A stretch of 64,000 bases of DNA from Candidatus Moraniibacteriota bacterium (GCA_002747515.1 PDPP01000017.1:4392-68391); one strand, 5' to 3'. Positions 11,243-22,228 are shown, numbered from the stretch's first letter. A program made the numbers and translations. The notes: a model not told the origin generated them from the sequence alone.

Positions 11243-11379
11243 TTCATATTATTTTTACAAAGATAGGAATATAAAGAGTGAAGAATTTTATATTGTCATT
11301 CCAGCGCAAGTGGGAATTTAGTAAATATAAAATAAAAAATATTTTAAACAATATTGCAGAAGCAAGTTATAAAACATTT

Positions 11380-12954
11380 ATGAGAATTCTTTGGTTTACA
11401 TGGAAAGATAAGACGCATCCACTTGCAGGTGGTGCAGAGGTTGTCGCGAGTGAGCTAGGCAAACGTCTTGTATCTGATGGTCATGAGGTTGTTTTTATTG
11501 TTGGTGGATATAAAAAAAATAAAAAAGCTAGATCAAAAGAAATAATTGATGGTTACACAGTGATCCGTGTCGGTGGACGTTGGAGTGTGTATTGGCAAGC
11601 ATATAGATATTACAAAAAACATCTCAGAGGTTGGGCAGATGTTGTGATTGATGAGATGAATACGATGCCATTTTTCACAAAATATTACATAACAAAAAAT
11701 AAAAACACTCCTACTTGTCATTCTCGTGAAAGAAGAAATCCAAAAGATAAAAAAGATACACCGTGTCATTCTCGTAAAAGCAGAAATCCAGAATATGAAG
11801 AAAACACCTTTTGTCATTCTCGTAAAAGCAGAAATTCAGAACATGAAGAAGCTACCTCTTGTCATTCCCGCGCAGGCGGGAATCCAGAGAATAAAGATGT
11901 CGTTAAAAATCAAAAAAAATCCTTTTGTCACAATCACGAAGCAGAAAATTCACAAAATAAAAATCCACGCCAGTTTCTATTTGTTCACCAACTTTGTAGA
12001 GAGATTTGGTTTTATCAGATGTTTTTTCCACTCAATATTATCGGTTATGTGTTAGAATTTTTTTATCTGCGTTTACTCAATGATCAAGAAGTGATTACCG
12101 TGTCAGAGAGTACAAAAAAAGACCTCATGCGATATGGATTTAAAAAAGATCGTATTCACATTATTTCCGAAGGGATTCAATGTGAACCACTTGCACAATT
12201 ACCTGCAATACATCATGCAAAATATGACACGCCGACTATTCTCTCACTTGGTGCAGTGCGTGCGATGAAGCGTGCAGATCATATTGTCACAGCATTTAAC
12301 ATCCTCAAGTCCACCTCCTCCCACTCTCACAAAAACCTTTCTCATCTCCACGACAACTCTTGTCATTCCCGCGCAGGCGAGAATCCAGAATATGAAGAAG
12401 CTACCTCTTGTCATTCCCGCGCAGGCGGGAATCCAGGGAATAAAGATGTCGTTAAAAATCAACAAAAAACCTGTCAATCTATTCACAAAAATAACAATCT
12501 AAAATATAAACAACAAATCAAAAATGCAAAACTCATCATCGCAGGAGACATACATGATCCATATGCACAAAAAGTACTGCATAATGTCGCAAAATCTCCG
12601 TACAAAAACGATATCACTGTCCTCGGGCGAGTCTCTACAGAAAAAAAATGGGAACTCATGCAAAAAAGCCACCTCATCGCAGTTACCAGTATCAAAGAAG
12701 GATGGGGACTCATCGTCACAGAAGCAGCGAGTCAGGGCACACCGGCAGTAGTTTATGATGTAGATGGACTCAGAGATGCAGTGGAGTGGGGTGATGCAGG
12801 ATACATGACAAAAGACAACACGCCAAAGGCACTGGCAAATGAAATGATACAAGCATTGCAAGATGAAGATAAATATGAGAGAATACGCCAATATGCATGG
12901 CACAAATCACAAAAACTTACTTTTGAAAAAAGCTACAAAGACTTTTTTCTGTGA
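11380..12954 (+). CDS. GT4 glycosyltransferase carrying two in-frame tandem arrays of a degenerate palindromic repeat (possible pseudogene or repeat-tolerant enzyme)
   Basis: The N-terminus MRILWFTWKDKTHPLAGGAEVV and the C-terminus GWGLIVTEAASQGTPAVVYDVDGLRDAVE match a GT-B/GT4 fold. The ORF is open from GTG 11278, but 11278-11379 is itself a degenerate repeat copy, so ATG 11380 is preferred. The interior encodes repeated CHSR(K/A)(S/G)(R/G)NPE peptides derived from the repeat DNA. Confidence 0.55.
   Translation: MRILWFTWKDKTHPLAGGAEVVASELGKRLVSDGHEVVFIVGGYKKNKKARSKEIIDGYTVIRVGGRWSVYWQAYRYYKKHLRGWADVVIDEMNTMPFFTKYYITKNKNTPTCHSRERRNPKDKKDTPCHSRKSRNPEYEENTFCHSRKSRNSEHEEATSCHSRAGGNPENKDVVKNQKKSFCHNHEAENSQNKNPRQFLFVHQLCREIWFYQMFFPLNIIGYVLEFFYLRLLNDQEVITVSESTKKDLMRYGFKKDRIHIISEGIQCEPLAQLPAIHHAKYDTPTILSLGAVRAMKRADHIVTAFNILKSTSSHSHKNLSHLHDNSCHSRAGENPEYEEATSCHSRAGGNPGNKDVVKNQQKTCQSIHKNNNLKYKQQIKNAKLIIAGDIHDPYAQKVLHNVAKSPYKNDITVLGRVSTEKKWELMQKSHLIAVTSIKEGWGLIVTEAASQGTPAVVYDVDGLRDAVEWGDAGYMTKDNTPKALANEMIQALQDEDKYERIRQYAWHKSQKLTFEKSYKDFFL
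11716..11887 (+). repeat. Four tandem 48-nt units (28-nt palindromic core TGTCATTC(C/T)CG...GAAATCCAG plus a 20-nt linker) inserted in-frame in the GT4 gene
   Basis: Cores start at 11716, 11764, 11812 and 11860, an exact 48-nt (16-codon) period. The first three are A/T-mutated variants and the fourth is near-consensus (tgtcattcccgcgcaggcgggaatccag). Confidence 0.8.
12361..12436 (+). repeat. Second in-frame insertion in the same GT4 gene: two 48-nt-spaced copies of the palindromic core
   Basis: The cores are tgtcattcccgcgcaggcgagaatccag (12361) and tgtcattcccgcgcaggcgggaatccag (12409). Low-complexity flanks on either side. Confidence 0.8.
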
Positions 12955-18762: not shown

Positions 18763-18776
18763 TGGTTGGTTTTTTT

Positions 18777-19070
18777 CTGGATTTCCGCTTTTGTGGGAAT
18801 GATGAGGGTATGGTGGGAATTGTTGGATTCCCGCCTCCGCGGGAATGACAGGGGGTATGGGAATGACAAGGGGGACGCGCGGGGGTGACATAGACTATAG
18901 TGGAAACCTCTGGATTCCCGCCTTCGCGGGAATGACACAGTGCGATATAGTGGTAGTTTCTGGATTCCCGCCTTCGCGGGAATGACAGGGGGGTATGGGA
19001 ATGACAAAAGGGGGCGCGGGAATGACAAGGGAGGTGCGGGGTGACGTATGAGATGTGGGGTTTGTAATGT
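18777..19070 (+). repeat. Repeat island A: clustered copies of the 28-nt palindrome CTGGATTCCCGCC(T/C)(T/C)CGCGGGAATGACA with GGGAATGACA(R)GGG sub-repeats
   Basis: Core copies lie at 18824, 18910 and 18960, and a degenerate copy at 18777. The island is GC-rich within an AT-rich genome and the units are 50-95 bp. Confidence 0.8.
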
Positions 19071-19098: not shown

Positions 19099-19674
19099 AT
19101 GGATATAATGAGAAAACAGAAAAATACGGTTGATTTGCGTGGTGGTGTGTTACGACAAGAGCAGAGGCATCGACATGGCACGCGGCGATCTTTTGATACG
19201 CAAAAGCATGCAAATGCGATATCTCATAGGAAATATATGGATGCGCAATCATATACAGTATCACAGAAGCAACAACAAGAAAGAGTGAAAAAAAATGGGC
19301 AGAATACCAAAAAATTTCAATTATTGCAAAAGAAACATTCTGTTTTATATAATAGTATTGGTGGAGTTGTGTTTTTTTGTGTGATTATAGGTCTTTTTGT
19401 TTTTACGGAGTTGACGAGTATTGATATTTTCTTTTGGACATTTTTTCTGTCGCTTTTTTATTGGCATATTGATAGTCGTGTTTCAATTGGTGGAGCTTTG
19501 GCGTGTCTTTTGGCAATTCCAGTTTTACTTATTGCAGAAAATAACTTTGGATATATCAATGGTGGTGTGTGGGCAGAAGAAGTTGCGGTGTGGGCATATT
19601 TTTTTCTCGTGATTGGTGTGGTGAAACAAATCTATGAATATATATGGGAGTCAAAAAGACTGAAGTCATCATGA
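19099..19674 (+). CDS. Hypothetical protein with a basic N-terminus and C-terminal TM helices, embedded between repeat islands
   Basis: ORF of 191 aa with a hydrophobic C-terminal half and no recognisable motif. The true start may be internal. It could also be a non-genic ORF. Confidence 0.25.
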   Translation: MDIMRKQKNTVDLRGGVLRQEQRHRHGTRRSFDTQKHANAISHRKYMDAQSYTVSQKQQQERVKKNGQNTKKFQLLQKKHSVLYNSIGGVVFFCVIIGLFVFTELTSIDIFFWTFFLSLFYWHIDSRVSIGGALACLLAIPVLLIAENNFGYINGGVWAEEVAVWAYFFLVIGVVKQIYEYIWESKRLKSS

Positions 19675-19688
19675 TGTTTTTTGTGGTT

Positions 19689-19895
19689 CTCTGGATTCCC
19701 GCCTTCGCGGGAATGACAAAGGGGAGCGCGGGAATGACAGGGGGGACGCGCGGGGGTGACATAGGCTATAGTGGAAAACTCTGGATTCCCGCCTTCGCGG
19801 GAATGACAAAGGGGAGCGTGGGAACGACAAAAGAGACAAAGATGATGTTTTTTATAATTATGTTATCCCCGCGAAGGCGGGGATCCAGGAATTTT
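19689..19895 (+). repeat. Repeat island B: two forward palindrome copies (19691, 19781) followed by a ~50-bp module containing the inverted-orientation core (ATCCCCGCGAAGGCGGGGATCCAGG, 19866-19890)
   Basis: Identical in layout to island A units (gacgcgcgggggtgacatagNctatagtggaaa). The island ends 7 nt before the GIY-YIG start codon. Confidence 0.8.
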
Positions 19896-19897
19896 TT

Positions 19898-20182
19898 ATG
19901 AAACAGTATTATGTATATATTTTAGCTAGTCAGAAAAATGGTACTTTGTATATTGGAGTGACGAGTAATTTGCAAAAAAGAGTTTTTGAACATAAAGAAA
20001 AGTTGGTTGCAGGGTTTACAGAAAAGTATAATGTAGATAAATTAGTGTATTTTGAACAAACAGGTGATGTGCAATCTGCACTTTTGAGAGAGAAGCAATT
20101 GAAAAAATGGAATAGGGATTGGAAATTGAAATTAATTGAAGAAAAAAATCCGCAATGGAATGATTTGTATGATTTTTTGTGA
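19898..20182 (+). CDS. Small GIY-YIG domain nuclease (UPF0213/YhbQ-like stand-alone GIY-YIG protein)
   Basis: YVYILASQKNGTLYIGVTSNLQKRVFEHK matches the GIY-YIG catalytic motif. The 94-aa size is typical of stand-alone GIY-YIG proteins. Confidence 0.7.
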   Translation: MKQYYVYILASQKNGTLYIGVTSNLQKRVFEHKEKLVAGFTEKYNVDKLVYFEQTGDVQSALLREKQLKKWNRDWKLKLIEEKNPQWNDLYDFL

Positions 20183-20184
20183 TT

Positions 20185-20512
20185 TTCTGGATTCCCGCAT
20201 GCGCGGGAATGACGAAGTGGACGTGGGAATGACAAGGAGTATAGTGAAAGTCTCTGGATTCCCGCATGCGCGGGAATGACAGGAAGGGTGCGGGAATGAC
20301 ATGGGAGACGTGGGAATAATATGATGTGCGTGAATGAGACGGGGTGTGTGCATGAATGACATGGATTATAGTGAAAGTCTCTGGATTCCCGCCTGCGCGG
20401 GAATGACAGGATGGGTGCGGGAATGACAGGGGAGGGTACGGGAATGACAAGGGGATGTAAGGATGATGTTTTTTATAATTGTGTCATCCCCGCGAAGGCG
20501 GGGATCCAGGGG
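20185..20512 (+). repeat. Repeat island C: three forward palindrome copies (20187, 20254, 20381; loop variant CATG/CTG) plus a terminal ~50-bp module with the inverted core (20486-20510)
   Basis: The island begins 3 nt after the GIY-YIG stop codon. Its terminal module ggatgatgttttttataattgtgtcatccccgcgaaggcggggatccagg is near-identical to 19843-19890 (upstream island B). Confidence 0.8.
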
Positions 20513-20521
20513 GTGTAATGA

Positions 20522-22228
20522 ATGACTAAGAGTGTTATGAAAAAATTTATTTTGAAATATCAGCATGGTATTTTTGCGGTTGTGGGTGCAGTTGTTGTGC
20601 TTTGGCAGATGCTTTTGCCAGGTTATGTTTTGTTGCTTGACTGGATTGCTGGTCCGAGTAATGTATTTTCGTATTATACGCTTTCGGATATTATGCATGC
20701 GCCAAGTACAGGGTTTATATATTTTTTGCAAATGTTTTTATCTGCATGGTTTGTCCAAAAAATATTTTTATTTGGTCTGTTTTTTGTCTTGTTTTATTTT
20801 CCTTTAAAATTTCATCCAAAGGAGATTTTTGATGCAATAGCACAGGATAAACCTACAATTATAAGCGTAAAATATTTTACATCAGTATTTTTTGCATGTA
20901 ATCCTTTTGTATATGAACGGTTTTTAGCGGGACAATGGCGTGTGATTATTGGCTATGCATTTATGTTTCCAATGGTTTATTATCTTTTTAAATTTTGGAA
21001 TAATCGATCATGGCATGCGATGGTCGGTGCTTTTGCAACATTATTTTTTGTGGGTATTTGGTCTGTACATTTTCTTGTGATTGGCGGAATTATGTTTTTG
21101 ATCTATGTATCTATTTTGTTTGTGGCAAATTTGAAAAATAAGGGTGTATTATGGGATGTGAGCAAAAAACTTCTCTTTGGTATTCTTGTTTTTATGGCGT
21201 TTAGCTCTTATTGGATTGTGCCATATATGTTGCAAAATGATAAAACAGTGGAGTATTTCGATGCTAGTCATCAAAAAGCTTTTGCTACAGCAATAGATCC
21301 AAAAGTTGGTGCTTTGGGCAATGTGATAACGCTGCGTGGTTTTTGGGGAGAAAGTCATGCTTGGGCGGATCAATTTGTAATGCCAGGTGATAACACTGTT
21401 GTTTTTTATATGAGTTTTTTTGTGATTATCACACTTAGTATTATTGGTATACGCATACTATGGCGTGATGTGAAAAATCGAGGGTTTGCAGTGTTTTTGG
21501 GTGTTTTTTTTATGTTGAGTGTGATTTTTTCTGCAGGAATTAGTGTAAATTTTTTGTGGAAGATTAATGAATGGCTCTTTGAGAATGTTTCGTTTTGGTC
21601 AGGATTTCGTGATACACAAAAATGGTCCGGCATAAGCGCAATGATTTATGTGCTATTGGCAAGTGTAGGTGTGAATTTACTTGTGCATAGTTGCAAAAAT
21701 CGTCTTGCACAAAAGATAGTATTGGGAGTGTGTTTATTGTTGCCAATTTCACTTGTTTCTAATATGCCTTTTGGATTTAGTGGACAAATTCACTCAGTGC
21801 AGTATCCAGAGCAGTGGCATAAAGTAAATGTTATTTTGAAAAAAGATGACGAATGCAAAATGATTTTTTTGCCATGGCATCAGTATTATTCAGTAAAGTT
21901 CAATAGTGGTATGCTCATTGCTAATCCAGCAAAAAAGTTCTTTGATTGCATTGTTGTGACCGGACATAATACAGAGCTAGGAGGCATTGCCTCAATTGCA
22001 GGAGATGTGAAACACTATCATGAAATGGAATCATTTGTTATGTCAAACAATCCTCAAGATGAATTTATAGAAAAAGGTATTGCGATGTTGCGACAAAATA
22101 ATGTGCGTTATATCGTGTGGACCAATGATTTAGAAGGACATGATTTATATCGTTATCCGTTTCTGCACTCTAGTCAATTGGAAGAGATTTATAATGGTGA
22201 CGGCATTGTGATGTATAAGATTAAATAG
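20522..22228 (+). CDS. Polytopic membrane protein, hypothetical (possible GT-C-like or YfhO-like glycosyltransferase)
   Basis: The protein is 568 aa with more than 10 TM helices in the N-terminal two-thirds and a soluble C-terminal domain. No specific catalytic motif was recognised. Confidence 0.35.
   Translation: MTKSVMKKFILKYQHGIFAVVGAVVVLWQMLLPGYVLLLDWIAGPSNVFSYYTLSDIMHAPSTGFIYFLQMFLSAWFVQKIFLFGLFFVLFYFPLKFHPKEIFDAIAQDKPTIISVKYFTSVFFACNPFVYERFLAGQWRVIIGYAFMFPMVYYLFKFWNNRSWHAMVGAFATLFFVGIWSVHFLVIGGIMFLIYVSILFVANLKNKGVLWDVSKKLLFGILVFMAFSSYWIVPYMLQNDKTVEYFDASHQKAFATAIDPKVGALGNVITLRGFWGESHAWADQFVMPGDNTVVFYMSFFVIITLSIIGIRILWRDVKNRGFAVFLGVFFMLSVIFSAGISVNFLWKINEWLFENVSFWSGFRDTQKWSGISAMIYVLLASVGVNLLVHSCKNRLAQKIVLGVCLLLPISLVSNMPFGFSGQIHSVQYPEQWHKVNVILKKDDECKMIFLPWHQYYSVKFNSGMLIANPAKKFFDCIVVTGHNTELGGIASIAGDVKHYHEMESFVMSNNPQDEFIEKGIAMLRQNNVRYIVWTNDLEGHDLYRYPFLHSSQLEEIYNGDGIVMYKIK

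Follow-up and report, generated by a model that had tools for sequence, protein, structure and literature searches.

Single-domain GIY-YIG proteins of about 94 amino acids (aa) constitute the Ssn family (CDD model cd10448), whose members bind an oriented hairpin repeat exclusively as single-stranded DNA, recognize neither RNA nor double-stranded DNA, and cut a few nucleotides (nt) 5′ of the repeat (Chenal et al. 2025, Nat Commun, PMC11893778). The target repeat is called NTS, CGTCATTCCCGCGMAVGCGGGAATCYRG, and its general form SRM; such repeats are found on both sides of the gene in 42% of the homologous genes (PMC11893778). For the Neisseria enzyme, oligonucleotide data show cleavage at 3 nt on the 5′ side of the 28-nt NTS; the three bases that precede the palindrome matter mainly for cleavage rather than for binding, a changed stem sequence abolished activity, and Y6, Y17 and E64 are the residues that were mutated in SsnA of N. 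meningitidis (PMC11893778). The CGTC-tagged repetitive extragenic palindromes (REPs), in turn, comprise the family CGTC-1, to which dRS3 of Neisseria and RPE-6 of Rickettsia belong, and no protein gene associated with this class was known in 2013 (Di Nocera et al. 2013, PMC3733652). Here we analyse a 64,000-nt stretch of DNA from Candidatus Moraniibacteriota bacterium (GCA_002747515.1, PDPP01000017.1:4392-68391), hereafter called the window, in which an ssnA homolog is bracketed by two nearly identical modules. Most probably (we put the probability at roughly 0.85) this locus is an Ssn system: the gene for a 94-aa GIY-YIG nuclease lies among its own cognate NTS/SRM hairpins, the second module is a local duplicate of the first one, and the whole block was inserted between its present neighbours. 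If so, the partnership of nuclease and repeats first described in 2025 now extends to a genome of Patescibacteria (Moranbacteria), and it explains the palindromes of this region.

The ssnA homolog and the hairpins around it

The protein encoded between the two modules matched PF01541 (GIY-YIG) over residues 3–77 with an E-value of 2.5e-17, in agreement with the identity proposed for it in an earlier inspection of the bare sequence (below, the sequence-only reading). No other domain was found in it, and the domain search revealed GIY-YIG alone, with neither transposase nor recombinase domains. A hypothetical protein from a metagenome-assembled genome of Candidatus Moraniibacteriota has the identical sequence (100%), and homologs of about 94–96 aa number in the thousands across phyla. 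A search in NCBIfam gave merely sub-cutoff matches to unrelated GIY-YIG models, and a PDB sequence search with the same protein gave no match. An open reading frame (ORF) of 94 aa from N. gonorrhoeae (L134:598-882) stood in for N. meningitidis SsnA in our comparison. The window protein is 61% identical to its product over 89 aa (tblastn E 2e-29, pairwise E 5e-41) and through this homolog falls within the homology limit used in the Ssn paper (E < 1e-10 to Neisseria SsnA). The gonococcal protein has Y6, Y17 and E64, which correspond in the alignment to Y7, Y18 and E65 in the window protein; across 18 homologs Y7 and Y18 were kept in at least 90%, R28, H32 and E65 being invariant. The 64-kb window contains one copy of ssnA.

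The gonococcal sequence itself (L134, NZ_CP119140.1 1881678-1883144) belongs to the 2.17-Mb N. gonorrhoeae chromosomes that are labelled as plasmids in PLSDB. Its 94-aa ssnA homolog is missing from the distributed gene table and has NTS copies in its flanks, where the polarity of hairpins is opposite to the common layout described below, that is, − strand before the gene and + strand directly after it.

The palindrome that is common in the window reads TGTCATTCCCGCGAAGGCGGGAATCCAG on the opposite strand and agrees with the NTS at 27 of 28 positions, most copies being at this level of 27/28. The published SRM regular expression matched 11 times in the window versus 0.02 matches expected, and its matches flank the gene both upstream (19781-19808) and downstream (20187-20214, 20254-20281, 20381-20408 and 20482-20509). 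With up to 7 mismatches to the 28-mer allowed, the number of NTS-like copies rises to 18, all of them situated within 11.29–20.51 kb and none in the other ~54 kb. The copy nearest to the stop codon of ssnA (20187-20214) is the sole CGTC-tagged one in the window. The assumption that gene and repeats belong together is thereby given a specific content, the gene being an ssnA homolog and the palindromes recognition hairpins of the Ssn family.

The sequence-only reading also described two near-identical modules of about 50 bp that bracket the gene and carry the palindrome in flipped form. Such modules are real: they are 49 bp long, differ at 2 positions and lie 1–2 nt away from where they had been placed. 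In the 64-kb window GATGATGTTTTTTATAATTATGTTATCCCCGCGAAGGCGGGGATCCAGG has 2 sites only, the second with 2 mismatches, and matches were obtained in 0 of 100 shuffles; with a repeat finder each copy grew to 52 nt (19838-19889 and 20459-20510), the identity of the pair being 94%. The segment enclosed between these direct 47/49 repeats, with the gene inside, comprises 572 bp. Module 1 is composed of an AT-rich 20-nt leader (19841-19860) followed on the coding strand by an oriented hairpin of NTS/SRM type, TGTTATCCCCGCGAAGGCGGGGATCCAG(G), at 19861-19889. The hairpins of both modules are indeed the reverse complement of the palindrome GGATTCCCGCnnnCGCGGGAATGAC, which is present 11 more times in the window, and they are distinguished from other nearby copies by a compensated change in the stem (ATCCCC/GGGGAT versus ATTCCC/GGGAAT). 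Module 2 matches the published SRM expression (20482-20509), while module 1 fails solely through GTT in place of GTC in the tag; among the matches listed, GTC is present in 120 of the 121 exact-core copies found elsewhere. Coordinates of all features are collected in Table 1.

Table 1. Features of the ssnA locus, with positions counted from the first letter of the window
Feature	Position	Strand	Description
Module 1	19841-19889	+	GATGATGTTTTTTATAATTATGTTATCCCCGCGAAGGCGGGGATCCAGG, exact match in pattern scan of the 64-kb window
ssnA homolog	19898-20182	+	94-aa single-domain GIY-YIG protein, Ssn family
Right-end NTS copy	20187-20214	-	CGTCATTCCCGCGCATGCGGGAATCCAG on the - strand; SRM regular expression match; 4 nt after ssnA stop
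Module 2	20462-20510	+	leader and hairpin TGTCATCCCCGCGAAGGCGGGGATCCAG; 47/49 identical to module 1
Array A	19684-19840	-	full NTS copies 19691-19718 and 19781-19808, 5′ half-sites at ~20-nt spacing
Array B	20183-20461	-	full NTS copies 20187-20214, 20254-20281 and 20381-20408, half-sites
Third array	18766-19060	-	NTS copies and half-sites; no module; fills intergenic region before the 191-aa gene
Upstream neighbour	19099-19674	+	191-aa membrane protein
Downstream neighbour	20522-22228	+	568-aa membrane protein

According to the folding, each module forms a perfect local hairpin with a stem of 8 bp and a loop of 4 nt. Upstream of module 1 the nearest copy of opposite orientation is 19781-19808, with 52 nt left between its end and the module's hairpin; for module 2 it is 20381-20408, and the corresponding distance is 73 nt. 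Pairing with these copies is predicted to give a long stem of about 28 bp in either case, so that the long-range inverted repeats expected at both flanks by the sequence-only reading came out of the folding run proposed there. The energies of these long stems are −27.7 (module 1) and −25.7 (module 2) kcal/mol if folded as DNA (z about −5.4), −57.5 (z −6.7) and −58.5 (z −6.1) kcal/mol if folded as RNA, all z-values lying between −5.3 and −6.7.

The arrangement of hairpins relative to the gene was evaluated in 67 metagenomic homolog loci with enough flanking sequence. Within 60 nt before the ATG, the hairpin was on the same strand in 49 of them and on the opposite strand in 5, while just after the stop codon an opposite-strand hairpin was found in 42 loci and a same-strand one in 5. 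Both canonical hairpins were present together in 33/67; a direct bracket, with same-strand hairpins on both sides, occurred in 1/67. In L001/L003 (80% identity), L127, L131 and L132/L133, for instance, a same-strand tagged hairpin precedes the ATG by 1–20 nt and an opposite-strand one follows the stop codon at 0–22 nt. Because the window follows this family layout, the canonical partner of module 1 is the hairpin 20187-20214 rather than module 2: module 1 is the normal left end and 20187-20214 the normal right end, its inverted partner, module 2 lying 247 nt beyond the latter. A gene placed in this way inside an inverted pair with the tags outward corresponds to the 'HH' dimer of Di Nocera et al., and among gene-less pairs no more than 150 nt apart, scored in 120 loci, 55 had this polarity versus 8 with the opposite one. 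Each module taken with its upstream copy represents the rarer type, tags inward.

For some homologs there is overlap between the downstream hairpin and the stop codon, as seen at the C-termini of P0072 and P0079 and at L131:1787-1814, and the annotated proteins then end in repeat-encoded tails, e.g. ...GFPLSRE.

The probably duplicated leader and inserted block

Scanning of the genome collection revealed the exact 29-mer core in at least 120 stretches from many phyla, including Proteobacteria, Patescibacteria, Omnitrophota, Rickettsiales and others. Among the matches listed, the sequences upstream of different core copies are unrelated to each other, and an ssnA homolog lies within 100 nt of only 4 of the 125 core copies. 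The leader joined with the start of the hairpin (TTTTTTATAATTNTGTNATCCCCGCG) gave 0 matches in the metagenome collection. The 20-nt leader GATGATGTTTTTTATAATTR lies outside the generic repeat and is specific to this locus among the sequences scanned. That the modules might be simply part of every repeat unit, the objection which the sequence-only reading had raised to its own proposal, is therefore true for the hairpin, which is a generic dispersed repeat, but not for the leader, which is locus-specific. Flanks of the repeat being normally variable, two modules that share the leader and agree at 47/49 positions point to local duplication, and module 2 is best read as a recent local duplicate of module 1, leader included. 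This segment also covers the point at which the cut is predicted (3 nt 5′ of the tag) and reaches 17 nt beyond it in the upstream direction, so that mere insertion of a repeat at the cut does not account for the duplication. Recombination or slippage among the densely packed repeats, in the course of insertion or expansion of the block, may have produced it.

Homologs of both neighbouring genes are adjacent in the two nearest relatives, L125 and L124 (identities 49–52% for the downstream gene and 41–43% for the upstream one), being separated there by spacers of 72 bp and 216 bp, respectively, with neither ssnA nor NTS inside. The spacer in the window is 847 bp long. Because the flanking genes adjoin each other in these two relatives without ssnA or NTS, the 847-bp block (arrays, module, ssnA, arrays, module) is, as judged from gene order, an insertion relative to the likely ancestral state. 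The empty sites, which the sequence-only reading had suggested to look for, were thus seen in both nearest relatives; in the more distant L135 and L136 synteny is lost, leaving two clean empty sites. A 12-mer of the L125 spacer, GGATGATGGGGT, matches the joined flanks of the 40-nt core of module 2, which is suggestive only. The 'empty' spacer of L124 (2440-2560) carries a different short hairpin repeat (CACCCCCTGTGTAAA...GGGGG), present there twice.

An error of assembly has to be considered here as well, in which two collapsed copies of a repeat came to enclose the ssnA segment when the metagenome was assembled. The window indeed comes from a metagenome-assembled genome, and the region is dense in near-identical repeats of 28–50 nt. 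Yet 2 positions distinguish the modules, each of which has unique sequence on its outer side, the same layout of hairpin, gene and hairpin recurs in dozens of independent assemblies, and the order of the flanking genes agrees with that in the relatives. An artefact of this kind is, consequently, highly improbable.

If the locus operates as an Ssn system, the protein would, by homology, bind the tagged hairpin in one orientation when the NTS-bearing strand is single-stranded, and nick it a few nt to the 5′ side of the tag. If the cut position of the Neisseria enzyme is transferred by analogy, nicks are predicted near 19857/19858 and 20478/20479 on the + strand and near 20217/20218 on the − strand; those near 19857/19858 and 20217/20218 would fall just outside the gene unit. 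We infer that the + strand is probably the lagging-strand template, because GC skew is strongly positive and nearly all genes are on the + strand. The modules and the intragenic copies would then put NTS on this strand, and the arrays would put it on the other one. The skew is strong and positive throughout the window, ranging from +0.11 to +0.33 per 4 kb, at a GC content of ~30–38%, with nearly all long ORFs on the + strand.

Several points weigh against such an interpretation. As the tag bases in Neisseria mainly affect cleavage, module 1, with its GTT for GTC, may be bound but poorly cut. Two kinds of stems, ATCCCC and ATTCCC, coexist with a single ssnA, and this enzyme may fail to accept one of them as its substrate. 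What is said here of activity, strand specificity and cut sites is derived from 61% identity to the characterised family, and the relatives with empty sites share only 41–52% protein identity, being too diverged to reconstruct when or how the block was inserted. A duplicated left-end module with its leader is the only unusual feature of this locus, and its significance is modest: it is a canonical hairpin plus a local duplicate.

Mobility, regulation and the repeat arrays

Signs of recent exchange were registered in other lineages. Genomes L128 and L129 share a 438-nt block (L128:1436-1873) with 0 mismatches, while their flanks are ~85% identical and differ at third positions throughout a fabD-like gene; the identical block starts some 20 nt ahead of the upstream hairpin, covers ssnA and reaches into the opposite-strand hairpin downstream of it. 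An identical run of 586 nt covers the cassette in L175 (326-911) and L178 against a background diverged by 4.6%, and L154 shares with L155 a stretch of 153 nt with one mismatch, from the upstream hairpin on, against a background diverged by 16%. In the pairs L128/L129 and L175/L178 the edges of the identical blocks are near or in outward-facing hairpins. Two further genome pairs showed no contrast between cassette and background, and the sample is small. At the level of sequence comparison these data point to a recent exchange of cassettes between diverged genomes, as could result from homing-like conversion or from transformation with fragments that had been trimmed at the hairpins.

One can suppose that in the window an ssnA unit, or a small circle composed of module, ssnA and array B, recombined into a resident module and left one copy on each side. 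The modules would then mark the ends of an element, in the manner of attL/attR or of a long target duplication. Direct 47/49 repeats around the 572-bp gene-bearing segment, the empty sites in relatives, the cassettes of other lineages that are far less diverged than their flanks (L128/L129, L175/L178) and the presence of a same-strand hairpin after the gene also in L128-L130 all speak for this, and the authors of PMC11893778 remarked on the insertion-sequence-like (IS-like) look of NTS-ssnA-NTS. However, the ends are inverted family-wide, a direct bracket occurring in 1/67 loci, and 247 nt of array separate module 2 from the canonical right end. The length of 49–52 bp is far above any target duplication made by a transposase, the protein is a hydrolytic GIY-YIG nuclease without a transposase or recombinase domain, the window contains a single copy of the gene, and the metagenome collection revealed no leader-bearing module. 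We consider this scenario doubtful. The mobile cassette proposed by the sequence-only reading is supported in part, by the empty sites and by the cassettes that are identical amid diverged flanks in other lineages, but its duplicated target or terminal repeats found no support: the ends of the unit are inverted, and module 2 lies past the right end.

A duplication of the target was tried as a separate model and rejected, because the duplicated segment includes the left-end hairpin and both sides of the predicted cut, and does not abut the right end. In place of the short direct repeats that abut both ends of a transposon, the locus has a repeat of 49–52 bp whose first copy, module 1, holds the left-end hairpin, and no transposase or recombinase is encoded.

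In its most general form the idea of mobility would make hairpin-ssnA-hairpin a self-propagating cassette with the outward-tagged pair as the transfer unit, gene-less pairs as its non-autonomous derivatives, and the window as a filled site with a duplication at the integration junction. We regard it as tentative and, on balance, rather unlikely; if true, movement or homing of Ssn units, only hypothesised in the 2025 paper, would for the first time have comparative evidence behind it, to which the mismatch-free cassettes of L128/L129 and L175/L178 would contribute. The polarity of hairpins, the empty sites, the identical cassettes and the arrays of half-sites at ~20-nt spacing described below all bear on the mobility of Ssn units and on the spread of the repeats.

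A different role for the modules might be expected from their position. Both contain a perfect TATAAT (19853-19858 and 20474-20479) and both precede a start codon. Module 1 stands directly 5′ of ssnA, as the sequence-only reading had it, although the gap to the ATG (19898) is 8 nt instead of 7. From the end of module 2 to the ATG of the next gene there are 11 nt (20522), or 26 nt if the ATG annotated by NCBI (20537) is used. Given the TATAAT, the distance to the start codon and the AGG-rich tail, a role as a promoter or 5′ untranslated region is possible, although unsupported. Each copy could provide the next gene with a promoter (−10 box), a 5′ hairpin and a ribosome-binding site, the duplication being kept since without it the insertion would have separated the downstream gene from its signals; in a variant of this scheme the long stem formed with the upstream copy would mask the ribosome-binding site in read-through transcripts, like an attenuator. 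Besides the TATAAT boxes and the distance of 8–11 nt from either module to an ATG on the + strand, this view is favoured by a stretch of AGGA or AGGGGG located 8 nt upstream of the ATG and by the very stable predicted RNA stems, which include the AGG. Yet the sigma-70 promoter scan of 19600-20600 called no promoter at the modules and found no −35 match, and the terminator scan of the same region gave 0 terminator-like sites. A T-run begins 8 nt after the stem of module 1, and none follows the stem of module 2. The pair of attenuator and terminator imagined in the sequence-only reading is thus not supported. Moreover, the core adjoins unrelated genes in many phyla, the sequence after the pre-ssnA hairpin in other lineages has no resemblance to a ribosome-binding site, and autoregulation via the transcript is unlikely, Ssn proteins binding neither RNA nor double-stranded DNA (PMC11893778). 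Taken together, this makes a regulatory function of the modules unlikely.

The Francisella small RNA FtrB (Rfam) gave sub-threshold matches at 19839-19943 and 20460-20550 (31.5 and 28.1 bits versus a gathering score of 66). Their source is an NTS-like hairpin (CAUUCCCGCGUAGGCGGGAAUC) situated close to the 5′ end of the FtrB consensus, and the modules were not accepted as FtrB; the same hairpin suggests, in favour of a regulatory role, that such structures can be part of a small RNA.

The preferred interpretation, an Ssn unit with a locally duplicated module, places this unit among arrays of related repeats. Array A starts directly after the stop codon of the upstream gene, and array B is collinear both with array A and with the array 18766-19060. 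The motif ATGATGTTTTTT opens array A at 19671, and a near copy of it, ATGATTTTTT, makes up the 3′ end of ssnA, at the start of array B. One way to read the region is as a single series that occurs twice: motif, − strand array, motif and + strand hairpin. The terminus of the array 18766-19060 (GATGTGGGGTTTGTAATG) resembles the sequence on either side of module 2.

Half-sites are found beyond this locus as well. In loci L004-L123, which represent many phyla, 14 of 107 copies had same-strand 5′ half-sites (tag and left arm, GTCATYCC...) at distances of ~20 and ~40 nt upstream of the full hairpin, as compared with 1/107 downstream and 1/107 in a control window. Because of this upstream excess (14/107 versus 1/107) half-site arrays such as those of the window are a recurrent feature of the repeat class.

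Repeats of the same origin are present inside a gene at the other end of the repeat-containing region. An ORF for a family-4 glycosyltransferase of 558 aa (11278-12954, + strand) stays open through two NTS-derived blocks on the coding strand, repeats in this region being located at 11294-11321, 11716-11887 and 12361-12436. The blocks are translated into tandem peptides of ~16 aa (CHSRERRNPKDKKDTP / CHSRKSRNPEYEENTF / CHSRAGGNPENKD ...), which are situated between and within two Rossmann-type halves of the protein, with Pfam matches at residues 51–149 and 411–540, and resemble the in-frame RPE insertions of Rickettsia.

Comparison with known systems

With free-standing GIY-YIG homing endonucleases of the I-TevI class the window protein shares the GIY-YIG catalytic domain, and the cassettes of other lineages that are identical amid diverged flanks make a homing-like pattern. 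Unlike these enzymes, it has no separate DNA-binding domain and no intron or intein context, and for Ssn the substrate is single-stranded DNA and the site is a multi-copy hairpin rather than a unique allele. RAYT/REPIN and IS200/IS605 elements are similar in that a small nuclease gene is flanked by hairpins recognized as single-stranded DNA, which are dispersed, often as inverted doublets. They differ by the enzyme, which is here a GIY-YIG hydrolase and not a Y1 (HUH) transposase, so that no covalent intermediate is expected, and Ssn is known from cleavage of single-stranded DNA, not from transposition. Membership in RAYT/REPIN was rejected on this ground, the gene being GIY-YIG and not Y1_Tnp.

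As far as the repeats are concerned, the closest relationship is with CGTC-1. The copies of the window read TGTC-ATTCCCGC-GAAG-GCGGGAAT-CCAG and show the attributes of this family, namely an 8-bp stem starting from AT, a 4-nt loop, a CGTC/TGTC tag and a 3-nt tail (PMC3733652). As in CGTC-1, copies are located near the 3′ ends of upstream ORFs and in-frame within genes, they are assembled in large mosaic clusters, as in Neisseria and Wolbachia, and the pair enclosing ssnA is an 'HH' dimer. Unlike it, each module forms with its upstream copy a tags-inward 'TT' dimer, described as rare for the class (PMC3733652).

The closest system on the whole is Ssn with its NTS-ssnA-NTS arrangement (PMC11893778), from which the locus retains a 94-aa GIY-YIG protein at 61% identity with both tyrosines and the glutamate (Tyr/Tyr/Glu) kept, an NTS conserved at 27/28, and repeats that are located on both sides of the gene and clustered. 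Compared with the Ssn systems described so far, the host is here Candidatus Moraniibacteriota (Patescibacteria) with ~34% GC, two stem variants, ATTCCC and ATCCCC, are found beside one gene, and the left-end hairpin together with a 20-nt non-repeat leader is duplicated 621 bp downstream.

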